From Chloroflexota bacterium (GTDB lineage: Bacteria; Chloroflexota; UBA6077; SHYK01): 64,000 bases of DNA. The position numbers were made by a program, and so were the translations under genes. Positions 10,162 to 26,897 of this stretch are shown here, one piece after another. Position 1 is the first letter of the stretch. Every line of letters starts with the position of its first letter. The stretch lies in NCBI GenBank assembly GCA_009692845.1, contig SHYK01000007.1, forward strand, positions 6,631-70,630, in the 5' to 3' direction. The notes under the pieces were generated by a model, which was not told the DNA's origin, made no database searches, and worked only from the letters and a program-made list of their open reading frames with translations.

Positions 10162-12642
10162 GTGACGGAAGAAAACCCAGGAACGACGAGAAGGCGGACG
10201 AAGAGCTCGCCACCCAAGCCACTAACGGTGACGGTCGAGCTCCCTGCCATTGCTCTGACGGATTCAGTCGTGCTGCCCCAGATGATCGTTCCCCTCCACC
10301 TCGATGCCTGGGCCCAGGTCCAGGCCGTCGAAATGGCCCTACTTGGGGACAAACGGATTTTTGTGGCGCCCCGAAGCGGCGAAGGTGAAGATGCGGAAAC
10401 GATCGGTCGGATAGGCGTCATTGCCACGGTCGAGGAGTCTCGCCCGTCTCGACGCGGCGGCCAGCGGGTGGTCGTTCGCGGCCTGAAGCGCGCTCGGCTC
10501 GACTCCGTGGCGCAAACGGAGCCGTATCTACGGATAAGCTGCCTACCCCAGCCCGATCCTGAAGTCGTTGCTCCAGAGGCTGCCGAACTCATGAACGAGC
10601 TCCTCGCGGTCACCGAGAACATCGTCGAGCTCAATCCAGACGTCCCATCTCAGGAGATCCTGCGCTACGTGCGGGGAATCAAAGAGCCGGGCTTGCTGGC
10701 CGACCATACCGCTTATTCTCCGGAGTGCTCCTTTGAAGAGCGGGTGAAGATTCTTGACACAATCGACCCGGTCGAGCGGCTTCGGATCGCCTTCGAGATT
10801 AGCCGTCGACATCTCCACGTGCAGCAGCTGCGGAGCAAGATTCGCGAGGACGTGAAGTCCGCCGTCGATAAGGCCCAGCGCGAGTTCGTGCTGCGCGAGC
10901 AGCTCCGGGCGATCCAGCGCGAGCTGGGCGAAGGCGAAGGCGAAGCGGCCATCGTGGATGAGCTCCGGGAGAAGATCCGGGCGGCCGGAATGCCCCCTGA
11001 ACCCGAGGAGAAGGCGCTCCGCGAGCTCGCCCGGCTCAACATCATCGGGATGCACTCGGCCGAGCAAGGAGTGATTCGCACCTACCTCGAATTGCTGACC
11101 GAGCTGCCCTGGTCAGTCAGTTCCGAGGATCACGAAGATATCAGCGAGGCTGCCCGCATCCTGGACGAAGACCACTACGGCCTAGAGAAGGTCAAGGAGC
11201 GCATCCTTGAATACATCGCTGTCCGCACGCTGGCCGGAACGAAGATGCGGAGTCCGATTCTTTGTTTCGTTGGACCTCCGGGGGTCGGCAAGACCTCGCT
11301 TGGCCGCTCCATCGCCCGAGCGCTCGGGCGCAACTTCTGGCGAACCAGCCTGGGCGGGGTGCGCGACGAGGCGGAGATTCGCGGGCATCGGCGCACCTAC
11401 GTGGGCGCGCTCCCCGGCCGCATCGTGCAGGGGATCCGCAACGCCAAGAGCAACAATCCGGTCTTCATGCTCGATGAGATCGACAAAGTCGGAAACGATT
11501 TTCGGGGAGATCCATCCTCGGCTCTCCTGGAAGTGCTCGATCCCGAGCAGAACTTCGCCTTCAGCGACCATTACCTAGAGGTCCCCTTCGATCTCTCCAA
11601 GGTCATTTTTATTCTGACCGCGAACATGCTGGACACGATTCCACCGGCCCTGCGCGACCGTATGGAGGTAATCAGCCTGCCCGGCTATACCGAGGACGAG
11701 AAGGTCAAAATCGCCGAGCAGTTCCTGGTTCCCAAGCAGCGCGAGGCGCACGGCTTGAGGCCTGAGCAGGCCACCGTACCGGAGCCGACGCTACGGAAGA
11801 TGATCGGCGGGTACACCCGGGAGGCCGGGGTCCGGAACCTGGAGCGGGAGATCGCCAACCTCTGTCGGAAGATCGCTCGCCGCGTCGTGGCCAAAGAAGT
11901 GGAGACGGTCACCATCCAGCCGGCCGACCTGGCCGAGCAGCTCGGGCCCGAAAAGTACACCTTCAACCTGGCCGAAGAGGTGGACGAGATCGGTACGGCG
12001 ACCGGGGTTGCCTGGACCGAGACTGGCGGCGAGCTTCTCTCCATTGAGGTCAGCATCATGGAGGGGAAGGGCGAGCCCATGCTGACCGGGCATCTCGGCA
12101 AAGTCATGCAGGAGTCAGCCCGGGCCGCGCTCACCTACGCCCGTTCCCACGCGCATCAACTTGGGGTCGACCCAGCGTTCTTTGACACTCACTCGATCCA
12201 CGTCCACGTGCCCGCTGGAGCCGTCCCTAAGGACGGTCCTTCGGCCGGAATCGCCCTCACGACCGCTTTAATTTCCGCTCTCAGCGGCCGACCGGTGCGG
12301 AAGGACGTCGCCATGACCGGCGAGGTCACCTTGCGGGGACGAGTTCTCCCCATCGGCGGCCTGAAAGAGAAGATGCTGGCCGCCCATCGCGCGGGAATCA
12401 AGACCTTCATTCTCCCCAAGCGGAATGCCAAAGACCTGATCGACATCCCGGCGAAGGTCCGCGAGATGGAGATCATCGAAGTCGAGCACGTTGATGAGGT
12501 GCTCGCCCACGCATTGCTGGCCGCGGCGCCCGCCGAGGCGCCATCGGTCAACGGGCATGTCGATGCAAAGAAGGTGGAGCCGCCCAAGCCGATCCTACGC
12601 TCCCGGAAAGGTAGCGTGGCCGCCCAGCCTCTCGCTTCTTAG
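10162..12642 (+). CDS. lon: ATP-dependent Lon protease, second paralogue
   Basis: [20 protein letters not shown] and an N-terminal LON domain are present. I preferred the GTG at 10162 because ggagga lies 5 nt upstream; the ORF maximum starts at 10027. Confidence 0.9.
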
Positions 12643-18642: not shown

Positions 18643-19605
18643 TCAGGCCAGCTCCGCCAGGAGCGAGCGCCAGGCCTCGCTTTCCGTTTCCGGGGCCACC
18701 AGCGCGGCGGCTCGCTGCCCATAGGCCCTCAGGCTCTCGTAGAAGCCTGGATCGCTCTCCGCGCATCCTAAGAGCTCGGCTAGGGCCCTCGTGTCCCCCA
18801 CCGGGAAGTAACCCGGGTAATCATCGCCGAGAGTTCCGATTAGGCCACTGATCCGTGACGCCACCACGGGTGTTGGCGACGTGAGTGCCTCGCCCAGCAC
18901 ATTCGAGCTGCCTTCCATGATGGAAGTAATCGCAACCAGATGGCTGCTCGCGAGCAGCCCGCGAGCTCGCCAGTGGGGCAGGGCGCCCGTCCAGCGATAC
19001 CGCGGGTTTTGCGCCGCCTCTTCGCGGGCCGCGGCTCCCAGGTCCGGGCTCAGGGCCGCCCCAACCTGGACCACCCTGATCAAGGACGAGCTGGCCAGGA
19101 GGCGAGCCGCGGCCGCCGTGCGGAGAGGGTCTTTCTCCGGTCGCAGGTGGCCGATCACCGCCACCCGGAAGTAGGTGGTGGGGCGCTTCGCCTGGCCGCG
19201 AAACGGGGGACAGGACTGGTAGATCACCCGCGCTTTGCTCTGGAGCGACCCGGGTAGCTCAGCGAGTCCCATTCGCTGCAGCACCACCAGCCGAGTGGCC
19301 AGATCCAGAGAGCGCTGGGCCTCCGCATCGATCCTGATGTCGTGGTAGAGGTCGGTACCAGTGAGCACCAGCACCAAAGGCTTGTTCGGGTGGCGCTCGA
19401 CGAACTCTCGGATGGAAGGCGCGCTGCGTCGGGCGTGCAGGCCAATCAGGACGTCACAGGGACCGCTGGTATAGGAAAGTTCGACGTCGACGCGGTGTCC
19501 AAGCTGGCGCAGGATACGTCCGTAGCGCATGGCGGTCATCACATTTCCTGAGCGGACCTGGGGAACAGACGGGGTGACGACGCGGATGTGGAGCCGGCTA
19601 TCCAT
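18643..19605 (-). CDS. senB: SenB-like glycosyltransferase (putative selenosugar synthase; TIGR04348-type as I recall it)
   Basis: MDSRLHIRVVTPSVPQVRSGNVMTAMRYGRILRQLGHRV...VIGHLRPEKDP...SIMEGSSNVLGEAL. The ATG at 19605-19603 lies 2 nt after the stop of the EgtB-like gene. The locus context includes selD and egtD. Confidence 0.65.
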   Translation of the reverse strand: MDSRLHIRVVTPSVPQVRSGNVMTAMRYGRILRQLGHRVDVELSYTSGPCDVLIGLHARRSAPSIREFVERHPNKPLVLVLTGTDLYHDIRIDAEAQRSLDLATRLVVLQRMGLAELPGSLQSKARVIYQSCPPFRGQAKRPTTYFRVAVIGHLRPEKDPLRTAAAARLLASSSLIRVVQVGAALSPDLGAAAREEAAQNPRYRWTGALPHWRARGLLASSHLVAITSIMEGSSNVLGEALTSPTPVVASRISGLIGTLGDDYPGYFPVGDTRALAELLGCAESDPGFYESLRAYGQRAAALVAPETESEAWRSLLAELA

Positions 19606-20932
19606 CGAGTGCGCAGGTGCGGAATCCGGCCCATACGTCCCGCCGGTCGGGCGGGTAGAAGTTCCGATAAGCACTCCGGATGAGCCTGGATCGGGTGGCC
19701 CAACATCCCCCCCGAAGCACTTTGTGGCCGAAAAACCAGGGCTCCGAATATTCCTTATAAGGTCCTGGAGCAAAACCCGGGAAGGGACCAAAATCGGTAG
19801 CCGTCCACTCCCAGACGTTACCGATCATTTGCCGGCACCCAAAGGCGCTGTCCCCGGCCGGAAGGGCGGACACCGGAAGGGTCCCCATCACCGCCCAGTC
19901 GAGGTTGGCCCGGTCGGGCGTCGGCGCCTCATCGCCCCAAGGGTAAACCCGCTTAGAGCCAGCATCCCCGCCGGGAGTCCCAGTCGCGGCAAGCTCCCAC
20001 TCCACTTCGGTGGGCAGGCGACGCCCGGCCCACCGGCAAAAGGCGTCGGCTTCGTACCAGTTGACGTGAAGGACCGGCAGGGCCGCTTCCAGCGAGACCC
20101 AGTGGTCGAAGTTTCTGCGTAACCATTCGCCATTCGGACCTTGCTGCCAGTAGACAGGGTGCTCGGCGCCCACGCTGTTGCGCCACCACCATCCCTCGGC
20201 CGTCCAGAGATCTCTCCGCCCGTAGCCCCCGTCCTCGACAAAATTCAGATACTCGCGGTTGCTCACGGCGGTCCGGGCGAGGGCGAAAGGCTTCACTTCG
20301 ACGGGGTGCGCCCACTGCTCGTTGTCGAAAACGAACGGTTCGGTGGGCCGGCTGCCAAGGTACAACGTCGCCCCCGGAACGTGCGCATCCCCGAGCGCCG
20401 GGCTCAGCTCTTCGATCCTGTGGCCAGGCAGCGCGGCTTCCCGGCCTGGGAAGCGCGGCGCTGGATAGCCCAGGGTTTGGCGGGTGTACGTGAAAGCCTC
20501 GTCGTGCATTCCCTCATGGAGAAGCGCGAGCTCCATGAAGTACGGGCCGCGGTAGCCATCCCGATCACGCGGCTCCTCGAGCTCGTGCTCGCGCTCGCAG
20601 ATCGTGTCCAGCACCCGCTGCATGTACCCGAGCGTGCTATCCCGGTCCAACAGAGGAAGCGCCCAGCGCGGATCGTGCGGAACCGTGGCGGAGTTGTAGA
20701 GTGCATCCCCATCGCTCAGAATGGGCTCCGCCCCCAGGAAATACCGCAGCACAAAATACTCGTAGAACCAGGCCACGTGTCCGATCTCCCAGCGGAGCGG
20801 ATTCACGAGGGGTAGGCTTAGCCCCATCAGCTGCTGCTCGTCGAGGTCAGCCACTAGAGCGAGGGTCCGCTCGCGAGCCTCCCGCAACGCGGGAATGAGC
20901 TCAGCCGCGGAACGGGAGCTTCTCAAAGTCAT
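19598..20932 (-). CDS. senA: EgtB-family DinB_2 + FGE-sulfatase-domain enzyme; SenA-like (putative selenoneine synthase) by adjacency to senB
   Basis: NPLRWEIGHVAWFYEYF is DinB-like. HVNWYEADAFCRWAGRRLPTEVEWE...GNVWEWT...RGGCWAT is the FGE-sulfatase part. The start is ambiguous: ATG 20932 or TTG 20971. Confidence 0.7.
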   Translation of the reverse strand: MTLRSSRSAAELIPALREARERTLALVADLDEQQLMGLSLPLVNPLRWEIGHVAWFYEYFVLRYFLGAEPILSDGDALYNSATVPHDPRWALPLLDRDSTLGYMQRVLDTICEREHELEEPRDRDGYRGPYFMELALLHEGMHDEAFTYTRQTLGYPAPRFPGREAALPGHRIEELSPALGDAHVPGATLYLGSRPTEPFVFDNEQWAHPVEVKPFALARTAVSNREYLNFVEDGGYGRRDLWTAEGWWWRNSVGAEHPVYWQQGPNGEWLRRNFDHWVSLEAALPVLHVNWYEADAFCRWAGRRLPTEVEWELAATGTPGGDAGSKRVYPWGDEAPTPDRANLDWAVMGTLPVSALPAGDSAFGCRQMIGNVWEWTATDFGPFPGFAPGPYKEYSEPWFFGHKVLRGGCWATRSRLIRSAYRNFYPPDRRDVWAGFRTCALDG

Positions 20933-21073
20933 GGAGCCGCAGTTTGGCAGAAACCATGGGCCGGTTTCCAACTGGTGTGCTCGACCCGCTAACCCAACCG
21001 TGTCCAGGTGACACCTGGAGAAAAGGCGGACATGGTGTGCAAGCGAATTTTGGAGTTTACTGCCCGCTGGGGC

Positions 21074-21973
21074 CTAGGCTCCGTTCTTGGCCTGACGCAG
21101 CACGAAGTCAACGAATCGCCGAGCGACGGGTGGCAACAGACGGCGCTCTTCCCGTACGAGGTAAAGAGTGCGACGGATGGGAACGCCCGCAATACGCACC
21201 GCGACAACCTCATTCTTCTGGGCAGGGTCGATCGCCATGGATGAGACGAAGCCGACCCCGTACCCGGCCCGAACTGCCGACACTATGGCCTGGGTGGTGC
21301 TCAGAGTCATCGCTACTCGGTAAGGAGGCAGGGCGAGACCTCTTTGCCAAAGCGCCCATTTCACATTGAGAATGGTGCCTGAACCGTCCTCCCGTTCCAC
21401 AAACCGCTGAGTGGCGAGCGCAGCAAGTGGAACCTCCGGACCACGAGCGAACGGGTGGCTTCCGGCCACCGCCAGGACGACCTCGTCCTCTCCGACCGGG
21501 TAGAGGTGGAGCCCAGGGCGCTGCATGGGAGCGCCCACGAAGCCCATATGCCAACGGCCCTCCAGAAGCTCCTCAACGACCCGGCTTGACGCGGTCGTGA
21601 ATACGACCGGTCTCACCTCCGGGTAGGCTTCAGTGAACTCGGCCACCAGGCGAGGCACCAGGAATTCGCCGGGAGTGGTGCTCGCAATGATTCGGAGCTC
21701 GCCGCCGAGACTGGCTTCGGCTCCCAGAAGCTCATCGAGCATCTGGTGATGGCGCGCGATGACGTCGCTGGCGAAGGCACGATAGCGCTCGCCGGCTGGG
21801 GTGCAACTCACCCCTTCCCGGGCGCGCGCGAGCAGCGCGACGCCGAGGGAGCGTTCAAGCTTTTGAATCTGGCGGGTGAGGCCCGGCTGGCTGATTCCGA
21901 GCTCTCGAGCGGCCGCTGTAAAACTGCCGCGCTCTGCGACCAACAAGAAATTTTCGAGAGTGCTTACATCCAC
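21074..21973 (-). CDS. LysR family transcriptional regulator
   Basis: LENFLLVAERGSFTAAARELGISQPGLTRQIQKLERSLGVALL is an HTH followed by a LysR substrate-binding domain. It uses a GTG start, is divergent from the permease, and is co-directional with senAB. Confidence 0.9.
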   Translation of the reverse strand: MDVSTLENFLLVAERGSFTAAARELGISQPGLTRQIQKLERSLGVALLARAREGVSCTPAGERYRAFASDVIARHHQMLDELLGAEASLGGELRIIASTTPGEFLVPRLVAEFTEAYPEVRPVVFTTASSRVVEELLEGRWHMGFVGAPMQRPGLHLYPVGEDEVVLAVAGSHPFARGPEVPLAALATQRFVEREDGSGTILNVKWALWQRGLALPPYRVAMTLSTTQAIVSAVRAGYGVGFVSSMAIDPAQKNEVVAVRIAGVPIRRTLYLVREERRLLPPVARRFVDFVLRQAKNGA

Positions 21974-22082: not shown

Positions 22083-23210
22083 ATGCTGCGTCTCAATTCA
22101 TCCGGTCATCCGGGCGAGTCTATGGGGGCGAATTTGGACCAGACGACCCAAGTTACCGCAATCGCCCTGAACCGCCGAAACGAATATCTGCGCGGCTTCG
22201 GCTTGCTATTGGTGATCGCGGTTGCCGGGCTCGCTTATGTGAAGTGGGAGCCGTACTGGGCCCGTAGCTTTGTCGTGGCGGTCAGCCACAATCTCGGCGC
22301 TTCAATCGTCTCCGGTCAGGGGGCGGTTGCCCCTGAACCATCGCTGGCCGCCGCGTGGGACTATGCTCGGGTCTATTTCGATCGCATCTGGATGGCAATG
22401 GTACTGGGGCTATTGCTGGCCGCCACGGTGGATGCGCTAGTGCCCCACGATTGGTTGGCCCGAGTGCTTGGCAGTACTCGGCTACGAAGCACAGGTTTGG
22501 GCGCGCTGTTAGCGTTGCCCGGCATGATGTGAAGCTGCTGTGCAGCGCCGGTGGCGCTGTCGCTCCGCAGAGGCGGCGCATCCCTCGGAGCCGCGGTGGC
22601 TTTCGCAGTTGGAAATCCAACCCTCAATATCGCCGTGCTGGTCTGGCTGGTGTTTGCCTTAGGTTGGCAATGGGCAGCTCTCCGACTGGTCTTCGGGATC
22701 GCCCTGGTTTTGGGGGCCGCCGCTCTCGCGACTCGACTTCAGGGTCCGACGTCGGTCCTACCGGATCTGGTAGAGCCGGCCGTCGTTTCATCGCCGGACC
22801 AAACCGGCTGGGCCATGCGATGGGTGCGGTCGCTGCTCCGCTTCACGGTTCAGCTTGTTCCGCTCATGATTGTGCTCGTCTTGTTGATGGGCGGGGCGCG
22901 GGCTTGGCTGTTTCCGGCGATCGGCGCAGACTGGGGTAACAGCTGGATTGCCGTGCTCGGCTTCGCCGTCGCCGGTATGCTGTTCCCGATCCCGACCGGC
23001 GCCGAGATCCCGATTATTCAATCGATGATGGGGTTCGGACTCGGTCCGGCCCCAGCTGCGGCATTGCTGCTCACCCTCGCCCCGACCAACCTCGCATCTC
23101 TGGCCATGATGACTCATGCTTTTTCGTGGCGGGTGGTGGCAGCGATCGCGGGGGTCACGGTAGTTGTAGGCATCGGGGCCGCGATCGTCGCGGGAGCCCT
23201 AGGGCTCTAG
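22083..23210 (+). CDS. UPF0718/ArsP-type (PF03773-like) permease with an in-frame TGA; candidate selenocysteine-containing transporter
   Basis: ORFs 22083..22532 and 22551..23210 are in the same frame. They are separated only by TGA 22530-22532 and six sense codons. The read-through gives ...LLALPGMM-U-SCCAAPVALSLRRGGASLGAAVAFAVGNPTLN. The U aligns with the first Cys of the family's P-x-C-S-C membrane motif. A hairpin follows 10 nt after the TGA. Confidence 0.6.
22543..22559 (+). promoter_or_regulatory. SECIS-like hairpin downstream of the permease TGA
   Basis: CAGCGC(C)-GGU-(G)GCGCUG: a 6-7 bp GC stem whose apical loop contains GGU. The stem starts 10 nt after the UGA, and the loop lies about 20 nt from the U of the UGA. 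Confidence 0.5.
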
Positions 23211-23236: not shown

Positions 23237-24523
23237 TTATCCGTCGCTAGCGAGCCGAATCCCGGTGAATTGCCAGCGGGCATCGGGCGGGAAGAAGTTC
23301 CGATAGCTCGCCCGAATGTGCGACCGGGGGGTCACGCAGGACCCACCCCGTAACACCATCTGATTCACCACGAATTTCCCGTTGTATTCGCCCAGGTTGC
23401 CGTCAAGCGGGCGGAAGCCCGGGTAGGGCAGGTAAGCGCTCCCGGTCCATTCCCAGACGTCGCCGTAGAGCTGACTGAGGTGAATCGCCGCGCCATTCGT
23501 GGATCGAGCTACCCCGGGATGGAATGCCCCCGATTCGAGGAAGTTGCCCTCGATCGGCTGAGCACTGGCAGCGTGCTCCCATTCCTGCTCGGTGGGCAGG
23601 CGCTCTCCCGCCCAGCGGGCGAAGGCGTCCGCTTCGTAGTAGCTGACGTGGCAGACCGGCGCCGCGAGGTCGACGGGCTGCATGCCCCCGAGGGTAAAGT
23701 TCTGCCATCCGTCGTCGCTCCGTTCCCAGTACCGGGGCGCCTCCCCGCCCTGGGTTTGGGCGCTGGCCCGGCCAGCCGAGAGCCATAGCTCAGGCCGCTC
23801 GTAACCGCCGTCCGCGATGAACTCGAGAAACTCGGCATTCGTGACCAGCCGCGACGCCATCTGGAAAGGCGCCAAGAGGACCTCATGGCGGGGGCCCTCG
23901 TTATCGAAACTGAACCCGTTCCCATCATGCCCAATGGATTGAATTCCGCCCGAAAACCGAACCCACTGGGGAGGCAAGGGGGTGGAGTGACTGGATGGAT
24001 TCGCCTGGAAAACGGGCCGCAGCGGATTTACCGAGAGGTTGAACTTGATATCGGTCAGGAGCAATTCCTGGTGCTGCTGTTCATGGTTAAGCCCTAATTC
24101 CACCCGATCCGCGAATTCTGGCCCGTTCGCCAACTCGAACAGGGCCGCCATCCCATCATCGACGTGGGCCCGATAGGCGAAGACCTCAGCCACCGTGGGT
24201 CGGGAGAGATGACCGCGATTGGGTCGCGAAAACTGAGGACCCACGGTGTTGTAGTAGGAGTTGAAGAGGTACTCGTAGCGGGGATCGATCGGCCGGTAGC
24301 TGGGCAGAAAAGGTTTGAGCAGGAATGTCTCAAAGAACCAGGAGACGTGGGCGAGATGCCACTTGGTGGGGCTGACGTCCGGCATGGCCTGGATGACGAA
24401 GTCTTCGGGAACGAGAGTCGCACAGAGCGCTTCGGTGAGCGAGCGCACTTCCCGGTAGCGGCTGGCCAGGGATCGCCCCTCACCAGTGGGCGCACCTGCC
24501 CCGGGCATCGCAGTTAGGTGCAT
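23237..24523 (-). CDS. egtB: EgtB (hercynine oxygenase / sulfoxide synthase family)
   Basis: PDVSPTKWHLAHVSWFFETF is the DinB_2 part. HVSYYEADAFARWAGERLPTEQEWE...GDVWEWTGSAY...RGGSCVT is the FGE-sulfatase part. gggagg lies 5 nt upstream of the ATG. Confidence 0.8.
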   Translation of the reverse strand: MHLTAMPGAGAPTGEGRSLASRYREVRSLTEALCATLVPEDFVIQAMPDVSPTKWHLAHVSWFFETFLLKPFLPSYRPIDPRYEYLFNSYYNTVGPQFSRPNRGHLSRPTVAEVFAYRAHVDDGMAALFELANGPEFADRVELGLNHEQQHQELLLTDIKFNLSVNPLRPVFQANPSSHSTPLPPQWVRFSGGIQSIGHDGNGFSFDNEGPRHEVLLAPFQMASRLVTNAEFLEFIADGGYERPELWLSAGRASAQTQGGEAPRYWERSDDGWQNFTLGGMQPVDLAAPVCHVSYYEADAFARWAGERLPTEQEWEHAASAQPIEGNFLESGAFHPGVARSTNGAAIHLSQLYGDVWEWTGSAYLPYPGFRPLDGNLGEYNGKFVVNQMVLRGGSCVTPRSHIRASYRNFFPPDARWQFTGIRLASDG

Positions 24524-24701
24524 TTCGCCTCCCGAAAGACGTAGGCCAGCCCATGATGGGGCATCTAAGCGACTAGCTTCGTCCCTGAGGATGCCGAATT
24601 CGCATCATGCTGGCTACAGTAATGCCAAATAGTCATGCAAGAGGCGGTCTCTGAACTGGCTTCGGCAGTGCGAAGCTATAGCGAGCGAGGGGCGCGATGA
24701 G

Positions 24702-25751
24702 CTAGGGCTGAACCAGAATACGGCCGGCTTGGCCTTCGATGAGCTTGCCCACTTGCGCGGCCGCCAGAGTGCCGGCCTCCTTGAGGCGGGCCACTAGCTC
24801 CTCCGCTCGGTCCTCGCTGACCGCGATCAGCAATCCGCCCGAGGTCTGGGCATCGGCGAGAACCGTGCGGGTGGTCGTGTCAACCTCCGCCCAATCGACA
24901 AATGGCTCCAGGAACCCCTCGTTGGCCCGCGTGCCACCTGGGACCACGCCCTCTTCGATGAGCTCTCGCACCCGAGGCAACACCGGCATCGCGCTCGACT
25001 GCAGGACGGCTGCCACGCCGCTCGCTACCGCCATCGTATGAAGATGACCCAGCAGCCCAAACCCGGTCACGTCCGTGCACGCGTGTGGCCCCACCGCCAG
25101 CATCACGTCCCCGGCGGCGCGGTTGAGCTCAGCCATCACTCGAGTCACCTCGGCGATCTCCGACTCAGCCAGCTTCCCAGCTTTGATAGCCGTCGTGAGC
25201 ACGCCGGAGCCGAGGGGCTTGGTGAGGACCAACACATCCCCTGGGCGCCCGCCCGCGTTGCTGATAATCCGATCCGGGTGGATCGTTCCAACTACCGCAT
25301 AACCGCACTTTGGCTCGGGATCGTCAACGGTGTGGCCACCCACCACTTCGACGCCCGCCTCGCGGGCCTTCTCGGCCCCGCCGAGCAGGATTTGCTCGAG
25401 ATCGGACCAGGGCAGCGTTCCCCGCGGGAAGCCGACAAAACTCAGCATTGCGGTCGGCTTGGCGCCCATCGCGTAGACATCCGAGAGCGAGTTCGCCGCC
25501 GCTATCGCGCCAAACTGGTACGGGTCATCCACGACCGGCGTGAAGATATCGATCGTCAACGCGAGCGCTAGCTCGTCATTCAAGCGATAGATAGCGGCGT
25601 CATCGCCGGTGCCGAAACCTACCAGGACATTCGGATCGATGCTAACTGGGAGCGCGCCCAACACGCGGGCGAGATCGGCGGCGCCGATCTTGCCTGCTCA
25701 ACCAGCGCAGTGGGACAGGCTAGTTAGCCGAATGATGTCTTCACGAGTCAC
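24702..25751 (-). CDS. selD: Selenide, water dikinase (selenophosphate synthetase) with selenocysteine at the catalytic position; SenC equivalent
   Basis: The track ORF (24702..25664) lacks the N-terminus. Extending in frame gives GTG(25751) TREDIIRLTSLSHCAG-TGA(25700-25698)-AGKIGAADLARVLGALP. This aligns with E. coli ...LTQYSHGAGCGCKI, with the TGA on Cys17. The SD gggggtga lies upstream, and an in-frame stop lies just 5' of the GTG. Confidence 0.9.
25672..25690 (-). promoter_or_regulatory. SECIS-like hairpin downstream of the selD TGA
   Basis: On the coding strand, AGAUCGG-CGCCG-CCGAUCU (7-8 bp stem) starts 7 nt after the UGA. Confidence 0.45.
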
Positions 25752-25907
25752 GAAAGCTCACCCCCTTCTTCATGGCCTCGAAGTCTGAACGAGTCATGCG
25801 GAGTAGGATACGCAATTCCACCCGCCGGTAGGGTCAGGGCTCGTGCTGATCGCGGTATAACAGCGCGCACCCAGAGTCCCGCACCCAGAGTCCATGAGAG
25901 GCCATTG

Positions 25908-26897
25908 ATGCAAGTCGCGAGCGAAGACCGTCTAAAGATCGAAGTATGCTTCGACCCGGCTGACCAAGCCGGGACCATGGCGGATGAGGTGCGGCGGGGC
26001 CTCACCGCAACCCAAAAGTGGCTTCCCTGCAAGTATTTTTACGACGAGACGGGCTCAGCTCTTTTCGAGCAGATTACCGAGCTACCGGAGTACTACCTCA
26101 CCCGGACCGAGCTCGCGATCTTGCAAAACATCGCCACCCCCCTCGCCCTGGCCCATCCGTTCGAGGAAGTCGTCGAAATCGGGGCCGGCTCGGCCAAGAA
26201 GACGACGACGTTGCTCGACGCGCTCGCGGCGGCCGGCTCCCTCCGCCGCTACCTCCCGATCGACGTGGATGGGACGATGGTGCTCAGCTGCGGGCAGGCG
26301 ATGCTGGCGCGATACCCGCAACTGGAGGTGAGCGGCCTGGTGGCCGACTTCCAGAAACACCTGAGTCGAGTAGCCCCGGCCCGCGGGCGTCGCCTGGTCA
26401 TCTTCCTCGGCAGTACCTTCGGAAACCTGAATGAGGAAGAACGGCAGCGGTTTTTGGCCGAGGTCCGGCCGCTGCTGGGGCCGACCGACCGCTTCCTGAT
26501 GGGCATCGACCTCGTAAAGGACGTCGCCACCCTCGAGGCGGCCTATGACGACGCCGCCGGAGTGACCGCCGCGTTCAATCGCAACATCCTGACCGTCTTA
26601 AATTCCGCATTGAAAGCCGACTTCGACCCGGCTGCCTATCGACACCGGGCGTTCTTTAACCGAGCGCTGGATCGCATCGAGATGCACCTGGCCCCCGCGA
26701 CAGCCCAGCACGTCGTGCTGCAGGCGCTGGACCTCGCTATCACGGTGCAGGCCAACGAAACGATCTTCACCGAAATCTCCTGCAAGTACACTCGAGCAAC
26801 GCTGGAGCACCTCCTGGCTGAAACGGATTTCAGCCTCACCGAATGGCACACCGACCCTGAGGGGAAGTTCGCCGTATTGCTCGCCGGACCGAGATAG
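25908..26897 (+). CDS. egtD: L-histidine N-alpha-methyltransferase (hercynine synthase)
   Basis: LPCKYFYDETGSALFEQITELPEYYLTRTELAIL...EIGAGSAKKT...FLGSTFGN is the EgtD signature. The gene is divergent from selD. Confidence 0.9.
   Translation: MQVASEDRLKIEVCFDPADQAGTMADEVRRGLTATQKWLPCKYFYDETGSALFEQITELPEYYLTRTELAILQNIATPLALAHPFEEVVEIGAGSAKKTTTLLDALAAAGSLRRYLPIDVDGTMVLSCGQAMLARYPQLEVSGLVADFQKHLSRVAPARGRRLVIFLGSTFGNLNEEERQRFLAEVRPLLGPTDRFLMGIDLVKDVATLEAAYDDAAGVTAAFNRNILTVLNSALKADFDPAAYRHRAFFNRALDRIEMHLAPATAQHVVLQALDLAITVQANETIFTEISCKYTRATLEHLLAETDFSLTEWHTDPEGKFAVLLAGPR

Follow-up and report, generated by a model that had tools for sequence, protein, structure and literature searches.

A selenocysteine-type selD gene, probably recoded at UGA codon 18, in the selenoneine/ergothioneine locus of an uncultured Chloroflexota bacterium

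In this study we find that the selD gene of an uncultured Chloroflexota bacterium carries an in-frame TGA at the position of the catalytic residue of selenophosphate synthetase, and we conclude, with a probability of roughly 0.9, that it is a functional gene in which UGA codon 18 is predicted to be recoded to selenocysteine (Sec). The gene lies in a 64,000-nucleotide stretch of DNA, referred to here as the window, which corresponds to C1:6631-70630 of a 1.88-Mb, 10-contig MAG with a GC content of 62.6% and an estimated completeness of 89%. Standard ORF calling yields a 320-amino acid SelD without the catalytic loop, and the gene therefore wrongly looks dead in a selenium locus. Sec-type SelD proteins are common and well documented, and our result on selD is an annotation correction rather than a discovery.

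The UGA codon in the catalytic loop of SelD

Translated with TGA read as U, selD (24702..25751, minus strand) comprises 349 codons, the 18th of which specifies Sec, followed by a TAG stop. Read on the minus strand from 25751 the sequence is GTG-TREDIIRLTSLSHCAG-TGA-AGKIGAADLARVLGALP, specifying the protein V-TREDIIRLTSLSHCAG-U-AGKIGAADLARVLGALP, and its codons run GTG ACT CGT ... CAC TGC GCT GGT TGA GCA GGC AAG, the Sec codon occupying 25698..25700 (minus strand). The GTG start codon (25749..25751, minus strand) is the sole ATG, GTG or TTG between the upstream in-frame stop and the Sec codon. That stop, a TGA at 25760-25758 on the minus strand, lies 9 nt 5' of the start and overlaps the last base of a Shine-Dalgarno (SD) sequence, AAGGGGGU (25760..25767, minus strand), which is spaced 8 nt from the GTG and can pair with the anti-SD, one of the pairs being a G.U wobble. 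The GTG, the in-frame TGA, the SD and the upstream stop had been named in the original prediction and can be read directly in the window sequence, as can the truncation of the gene at its in-frame TGA, the standard-code ORF list having only 24702..25664 (320 amino acids) for this frame. The GTG with which the truncated ORF begins (25662..25664, minus strand) is really the codon for Val30, and falls inside the loop of the second of two RNA hairpins described below.

The product matches the SelD models TIGR00476 (375.6 bits against a cut-off of 125, covering profile positions 1-310 of 311) and NF002098 (340.7 bits against a cut-off of 299), and contains both an AIRS domain (PF00586, 105.5 bits) and an AIRS_C domain (PF02769, 71.3 bits). 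Its top match among solved structures is E. coli SelD (3u0o; E = 5e-73, residues 4-348 against 3-345), and the alignment is ungapped at the N-terminus, placing U18 on Cys17 and K21 on Lys20 of the G-[C/U]-x-x-K loop. The Aquifex aeolicus structure 2yye aligns likewise, with U18 opposite the Cys of the structure. The earlier claim that the TGA falls on the catalytic residue is thus borne out, the codon lying inside the motif and not outside it. Neither Cys17 nor Lys20 is dispensable in the E. coli enzyme, and a product initiated at GTG 25664, without the Sec/Cys and Lys of the loop, would therefore miss essential residues.

The TGA is strongly conserved. A search of 41 related genomes of the same family, order and class returned 34 full-length selD matches, including second copies in two genomes, and every one carries exactly one TGA, whereas the weaker ThiL/HypE/PurM-like paralogues recovered in the same search have none. 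In a codon-level alignment the TGA is invariant in 30/30 selD orthologues, and the 17 N-terminal codons upstream of it are conserved at the protein level, with the peptide R-L-T-x-x-S-H-x-A-G, the start codon (ATG or GTG) and the SD in the same columns. Among more distant selD genes, taken from one-per-species GTDB genomes, the Sec position is occupied by TGA in 60 of 79 and by TGC or TGT in the remaining 19, indicating that Sec-type SelD is common. Two selD copies are found in each of the order-level relatives G018 (C51/C98) and G022 (C114/C42); all have the TGA and are 46-55% identical to the query.

These data bear on the possibility that the TGA is a true stop, with selD either decaying or producing a 320-amino acid protein from GTG 25664 that has no N-terminal loop. 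This is exactly the frame that the standard code gives, but it is scarcely credible when the codons 5' of the TGA are conserved as protein together with a start codon and SD, when the TGA itself is present in every orthologue and full-length match, and when GTG 25664, an internal codon for Val, lacks an SD and would give a product that has lost the Sec/Cys and Lys of the catalytic loop.

A second cysteine of the SelD loop is found at -3 relative to Sec (C-A-G-U-A-G-K, residues 15-21, 25709-25689 on the minus strand). This arrangement is seen in SelD proteins of the family to which the window belongs and in some Myxococcota, Deferrimicrobiaceae and Verrucomicrobiota, while SelD in the rest of the order has the cysteine at +2 (G-A-G-U-A-C-K), the position that it also takes in E. 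coli. The C-x-x-U of the loop could form a protective selenenylsulfide.

Selenocysteine decoding in the genome

The original prediction held that TGA is decoded as Sec in this organism. This is supported both by the position of the TGA on the catalytic residue and by the presence of the insertion machinery in the genome: selA (C5:237441-238775; 556 bits against a profile cut-off of 268), selB (C3:409737-411674; 370 bits, C-terminal part included) and selC, a tRNA-Sec gene with anticodon UCA (C3:222836-222933) that is called tRNA-SeC by ARAGORN and scores 69.5 bits with RF01852 against a gathering score of 47. The 8-bp acceptor stem, 6-bp D stem and long variable arm of this tRNA are canonical, and no other tRNA of the genome has a UCA anticodon. 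Of the 41 relatives, 37 also have selA. ARAGORN additionally reported a 97-nt 'tRNA-?' with the four-base anticodon gggt (C9:10026-10122, minus strand), which has weak D and variable arms and is probably a false positive.

Elsewhere in the genome TGA acts as a stop: when codon usage was scanned across the 1.88 Mb, no more than 17 TGA codons were flanked on both sides by coding signal, most of them at gene junctions. It is thus highly improbable that the UGA of selD is read as Trp, Cys or Gly, through a reassigned code or a suppressor tRNA, given also that the sole UCA-anticodon tRNA is a canonical tRNA-Sec, that selA and selB are both encoded, and that the homologous residue of other SelD proteins is either Cys or Sec. 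Nothing in the data speaks specifically for such a reading, although some insertion of Cys under selenium starvation is compatible with the sequence.

SelD is the second largest prokaryotic selenoprotein family (PMC13188914; PMC1794560) and, together with FdhA, one of the two most widespread bacterial selenoproteins (PMC1794560; PMC13188914). All Sec-decoding bacteria that do not have FdhA were found to have a Sec-type SelD (PMC1794560). Neither FdhA nor selU was found in the 89% complete genome, which fits this rule.

Four other genes have an in-frame TGA that is placed in a redox motif, spanned by a protein domain and followed by a candidate SECIS hairpin, the small loop of which includes G-U or G-G and is 16-22 nt from the UGA. 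A 106-amino acid Rdx/SelW-like protein (C5:371774-372094, minus strand) has the motif CVTU, with PF10262 spanning the TGA and a strong hairpin with loop GUG. A two-domain thioredoxin/glutaredoxin-like protein (C5:97172-97867, minus strand) has UPWC, with Thioredoxin_3 matching across the TGA at 91.7 bits and a hairpin loop GUG, and an AhpC/TSA-like protein (C10:56978-57655, minus strand) has UGKC, with PF00578 spanning the TGA and a hairpin loop AGUU. The fourth is an ArsP_1 permease in the window itself (22083-23210, plus strand), with the motif USCC at a TGA near 22530, Pfam ArsP_1 matching across the TGA, and a hairpin with loop GGU that, at -25 kcal/mol, is the strongest downstream hairpin of the selenoprotein scan. 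The establishment of Sec decoding in the genome validates the reading of such TGA-interrupted genes, for example the permease, as selenoproteins. In two Bacillota/Sulfobacillus loci (L114 and L126) homologues of the permease are likewise encoded no more than 8 kb from selD. The TGA codons at the frdC/frdD junction and in a DUF3303 gene were considered as Sec codons and dismissed as normal stops. It should be noted that the scan was crude, and that even relaxed versions of it missed selD on account of the shortness of its N-terminal segment; what this work adds on other selenoproteins is accordingly a minimum list and not a census.

Candidate recoding hairpins

We propose that translation of selD would begin at GTG 25751 and that, at the UGA (25700-25698), SelB carrying Sec-tRNA(Sec) would be recruited by RNA structure just 3' in the coding sequence, with Sec being placed in the N-terminal glycine-rich loop H-C-A-G-U-A-G-K at the position of E. 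coli Cys17. Two adjacent hairpins are candidates for the recruiting structure. Hairpin 1 is the 19-nt palindrome AGAUCGGCGCCGCCGAUCU (25672..25690, minus strand) pointed out in the original prediction, which is indeed separated from the TGA by 7 nt. It has an 8-bp stem with the loop GCC, is extendable to 25694-25668, and has a folding energy of -11.2 kcal/mol for the core and -17.2 kcal/mol with a 3-bp extension; its loop is 15 nt from the UGA. Hairpin 2 (25655..25671, minus strand), directly 3' of hairpin 1, was found by folding a wider set of selD genes, in which it has the consensus GCNCAG-GUN-CUGNGC. In the window it reads C-GCCCG / CGUGU / UGGGC-G, with a 6-bp stem including one G.U pair, a loop at 25665-25661 that is 32 nt from the UGA, and a folding energy of -8.3 kcal/mol. 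This is weaker than in most relatives, owing to a Gln-to-Arg codon change, as a result of which the loop grows to 5 nt and one of the pairs is a G.U.

Folding of the window selD as a single sequence was not significant (z = -1.25), which for a sequence of 63% GC is uninformative, and an Rfam scan of 24400-26000 gave only a chance miRNA match and no family able to be a SECIS. As groups, TGA-type selD genes fold better than those of the Cys type when each is compared with shuffled sequences, the mean z being -1.62 for the former and -0.30 for the latter (Mann-Whitney p = 6e-5). For hairpin 2, pairing was seen in 84% of cells among 80 distinct Sec-type selD genes from many phyla, with changes on both sides in 6 of the 7 pairs. 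One pair occurs as GC:40, CG:13, UA:7 and AU:2, the third base of an Ala/Ser/Thr codon covarying with the first base of an Arg/Gly/Ser/Cys codon, and another as GC:53 and AU:12, where synonymous CAG/CAA is paired with synonymous CUG/UUG. The hairpin also tells the two types of selD apart and is lacking in the Cys type, the mean number of pairs formed being 5.55 of 7 for TGA forms and 2.79 of 7 for TGY (Cys) forms.

Conservation of hairpin 1 is seen within the order, where pairing was found in 91% of cells across 30 orthologues, compared with 23-37% when the 3' partner was slid. It shows compensatory changes, C-G/A-U and A-U/G-C, one of them at a synonymous Ala third position, though as few as one or two evolutionary events may account for them. 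Across phyla, shifting the register of hairpin 1 by 2 nt gave no better pairing than in slid controls, and in fixed register the hairpin did not separate the two types of selD, with 4.67 of 8 pairs in TGA forms against 4.21 in TGY forms.

A published model of the bacterial SECIS (bSECIS) describes a loop of 3-9 nt, a stem of 4-16 bp, a G in the first two loop positions that is usually followed by G or U, and a distance of 16-37 nt from the UGA, with a minimum free energy of -7.5 kcal/mol or lower (PMC13188914). Hairpin 2 agrees with this model in all four features and hairpin 1 in three, its spacing of 15 nt being one short. Hairpin 1 in addition has no G[G/U] motif in its loop.

Which of the two would be bound by SelB is a matter of weighing these features. 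That it is hairpin 1, with hairpin 2 an unrelated or accessory conserved structure, is suggested by geometry, which taken alone favours hairpin 1: its loop is placed close to the 16-22 nt range of the four other candidate loops, whereas the loop of hairpin 2 is 32 nt from the UGA. Hairpin 1 is also the more stable helix in the window gene, is highly paired within the order with compensatory changes, and has a loop that begins with G. On the other hand, its spacing is just below the published range, and its loop, GCC, is not a G followed by G or U and in relatives often begins with two bases other than G (CCG, AAG, CCA). Its register moves by 2 nt between lineages, it fails in fixed register to tell TGA from TGY forms, and much of its pairing can arise from the G-P-x-D-L codons themselves. 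We therefore regard hairpin 1 as the rather unlikely choice, and a joint requirement for both hairpins in SelB-dependent recoding as more improbable again. Our preference, on comparative sequence grounds and with modest confidence, is that hairpin 2, a covarying hairpin of Sec-type selD that is found across phyla and is possibly the real SelB-binding site, is the element that SelB would bind, hairpin 1 being an accessory helix that would be melted by the ribosome. The palindrome originally singled out is thus genuine and shows conservation within the order, but it is unlikely to be the entire SECIS and is maybe not its main part; hairpin 2, which fits the bSECIS model better and covaries more richly across phyla, is the better-supported SECIS candidate that this work adds.

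The selenoneine locus, selenium self-dependence and comparison with known systems

selD is located among genes for selenoneine and ergothioneine biosynthesis. Immediately downstream on the same strand, at a distance of 178 nt, is egtB (23237..24523, minus strand; TIGR03440, 581 bits against 360), and a promoter/terminator scan, which found no promoters or terminators, gave no terminator-like site between the two genes. The histidine N-alpha-methyltransferase gene egtD (25905..26897, plus strand; TIGR03438, 349 bits against 290.9) is divergent from selD. Beyond egtB and the permease are a gene for a LysR regulator (21074-21973, minus strand), which scores 214 with a selenium-metabolism LysR model and so falls below the cut-off of 250, senA, encoding selenoneine synthase (19598..20971, minus strand; NF041186, 485 bits against 420), and senB, encoding the selenosugar synthase that uses selenophosphate (18643..19605, minus strand; TIGR04348, 371 bits against 300). 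The end of senB at 19605 is 5.1 kb from selD at 24702, so that the genes share an 8-kb locus but are not contiguous, with the LysR gene, the permease and egtB lying between them.

The senC gene of described sen clusters is homologous to selD, and some of these clusters also include egtD (Kayrouz et al., bioRxiv 10.1101/2022.04.13.486033); that survey scanned 5 kb either side of senB. Among the 41 related genomes senB is present in eight, and in four of these (the window genome, G006, G011 and G029) it is within about 6 kb of a Sec-type selD; in G006, a family-level relative, the genes are contiguous in the order selD(TGA)-senA-senB. Of 80 senB loci of other phyla, collected with a SenB alignment as query, 16 have selD within 8 kb: seven TGA-type, from Acidobacteriota, Clostridia, Heliomicrobium and Chloroflexota, and nine Cys-type, mostly from Proteobacteria. 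With seven of 16 being TGA-type, a Sec-type SenC is a recurring arrangement and is not peculiar to the window. The senB gene of G006 itself has an in-frame TGA (L129, G006:C130, ~11988-11990), which was rejected as a Sec codon since it aligns with an Arg of the window SenB (HWRVU against HWRAR); a nonsense mutation of CGA to TGA, or else an error in sequencing, is the probable explanation.

Searching the genome turned up no second selD, although the missing 11% could hold a Cys-type copy. As the only selD found, the gene would supply selenophosphate to SelA for all selenoproteins, SelD itself included, and on the same grounds it very probably also supplies the SenB/SenA selenoneine pathway, acting as the SenC of the cluster. 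This probable dual role is among the additions of this work, and the identification of a Sec-type SelD as the presumptive SenC of a selenoneine/ergothioneine locus goes slightly beyond an annotation fix.

A single Sec-type selD also implies that synthesis of SelD would require its own product, since Sec-tRNA(Sec) is needed for SelD, selenophosphate for Sec-tRNA(Sec), and SelD for selenophosphate, a presumed positive feedback on selenium. Daughter cells would bridge this loop by inheriting SelD protein. Such self-dependence is an old proposal, made both for Sec-type SelD and for SEPHS2. It is discussed for Sec-type SelD also in PMC1794560. The original prediction took the sequence to show that the locus is auto-dependent on selenium; the argument follows logically from a single Sec-type selD and is a reasonable inference, but it is not something that the sequence itself demonstrates. 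More tentatively still, it is possible that in a lineage without FdhA and SelU one Sec-type SelD would form a hub for all use of selenium, serving its own synthesis, the small redox selenoproteins and the SenC function. Recoding of the selD UGA would then act as a selenium-gated feed-forward switch on selenoneine, with a SECIS made of two hairpins and shared across phyla as its signal. The permease may be another selenoprotein of the locus, which also has a LysR regulator of the selenium type.

With E. coli SelD (selenide, water dikinase; PDB 3U0O) the window protein shares a full-length match, the register of the N-terminal loop, the AIRS and AIRS_C domains, and the Asp-containing motifs GDDAA, TxD.F.P, SD.YAMG and TDVTGFG. 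The two differ in that Cys17 of E. coli is replaced by Sec18, and in the second cysteine, which the E. coli loop C-G-C-K has at +2 and the loop C-A-G-U-A-G-K of the window protein at -3. The SelD proteins of Aquifex aeolicus and Haemophilus influenzae contain Sec, and the A. aeolicus structures (PDB 2YYE/2ZOD) were solved with Cys replacing it. As in Sec-containing bacterial SelD generally, the window gene has a UGA at the catalytic position, a hairpin in the coding sequence, and selA, selB and selC in the genome. There is no essential difference from these systems, the gene being set apart by its origin in an uncultured Chloroflexota bacterium and its place in a selenoneine/ergothioneine locus.

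The window protein resembles SenC of Variovorax paradoxus in being a SelD homologue whose gene shares a locus with senA and senB, and egtD is present too, as it is in some of the known clusters. Unlike V. paradoxus senC, however, the gene is 5.1 kb from senB and does not overlap it, and its product is Sec-type and apparently the only SelD of the genome, which means that it would also serve SelA. Kayrouz et al. (bioRxiv 10.1101/2022.04.13.486033) are silent on whether V. paradoxus SenC has Cys or Sec; we assume that it is Cys-type because the protein was made in high yield in E. coli. Mammalian SEPHS2 offers a further parallel, being likewise a selenophosphate synthetase with Sec whose synthesis depends on the selenophosphate that it makes, which is the idea of its autoregulation. 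The SECIS of SEPHS2 is of the eukaryotic kind, located in the 3' UTR and read with other recoding factors, whereas the hairpins of the window selD lie within the coding sequence.
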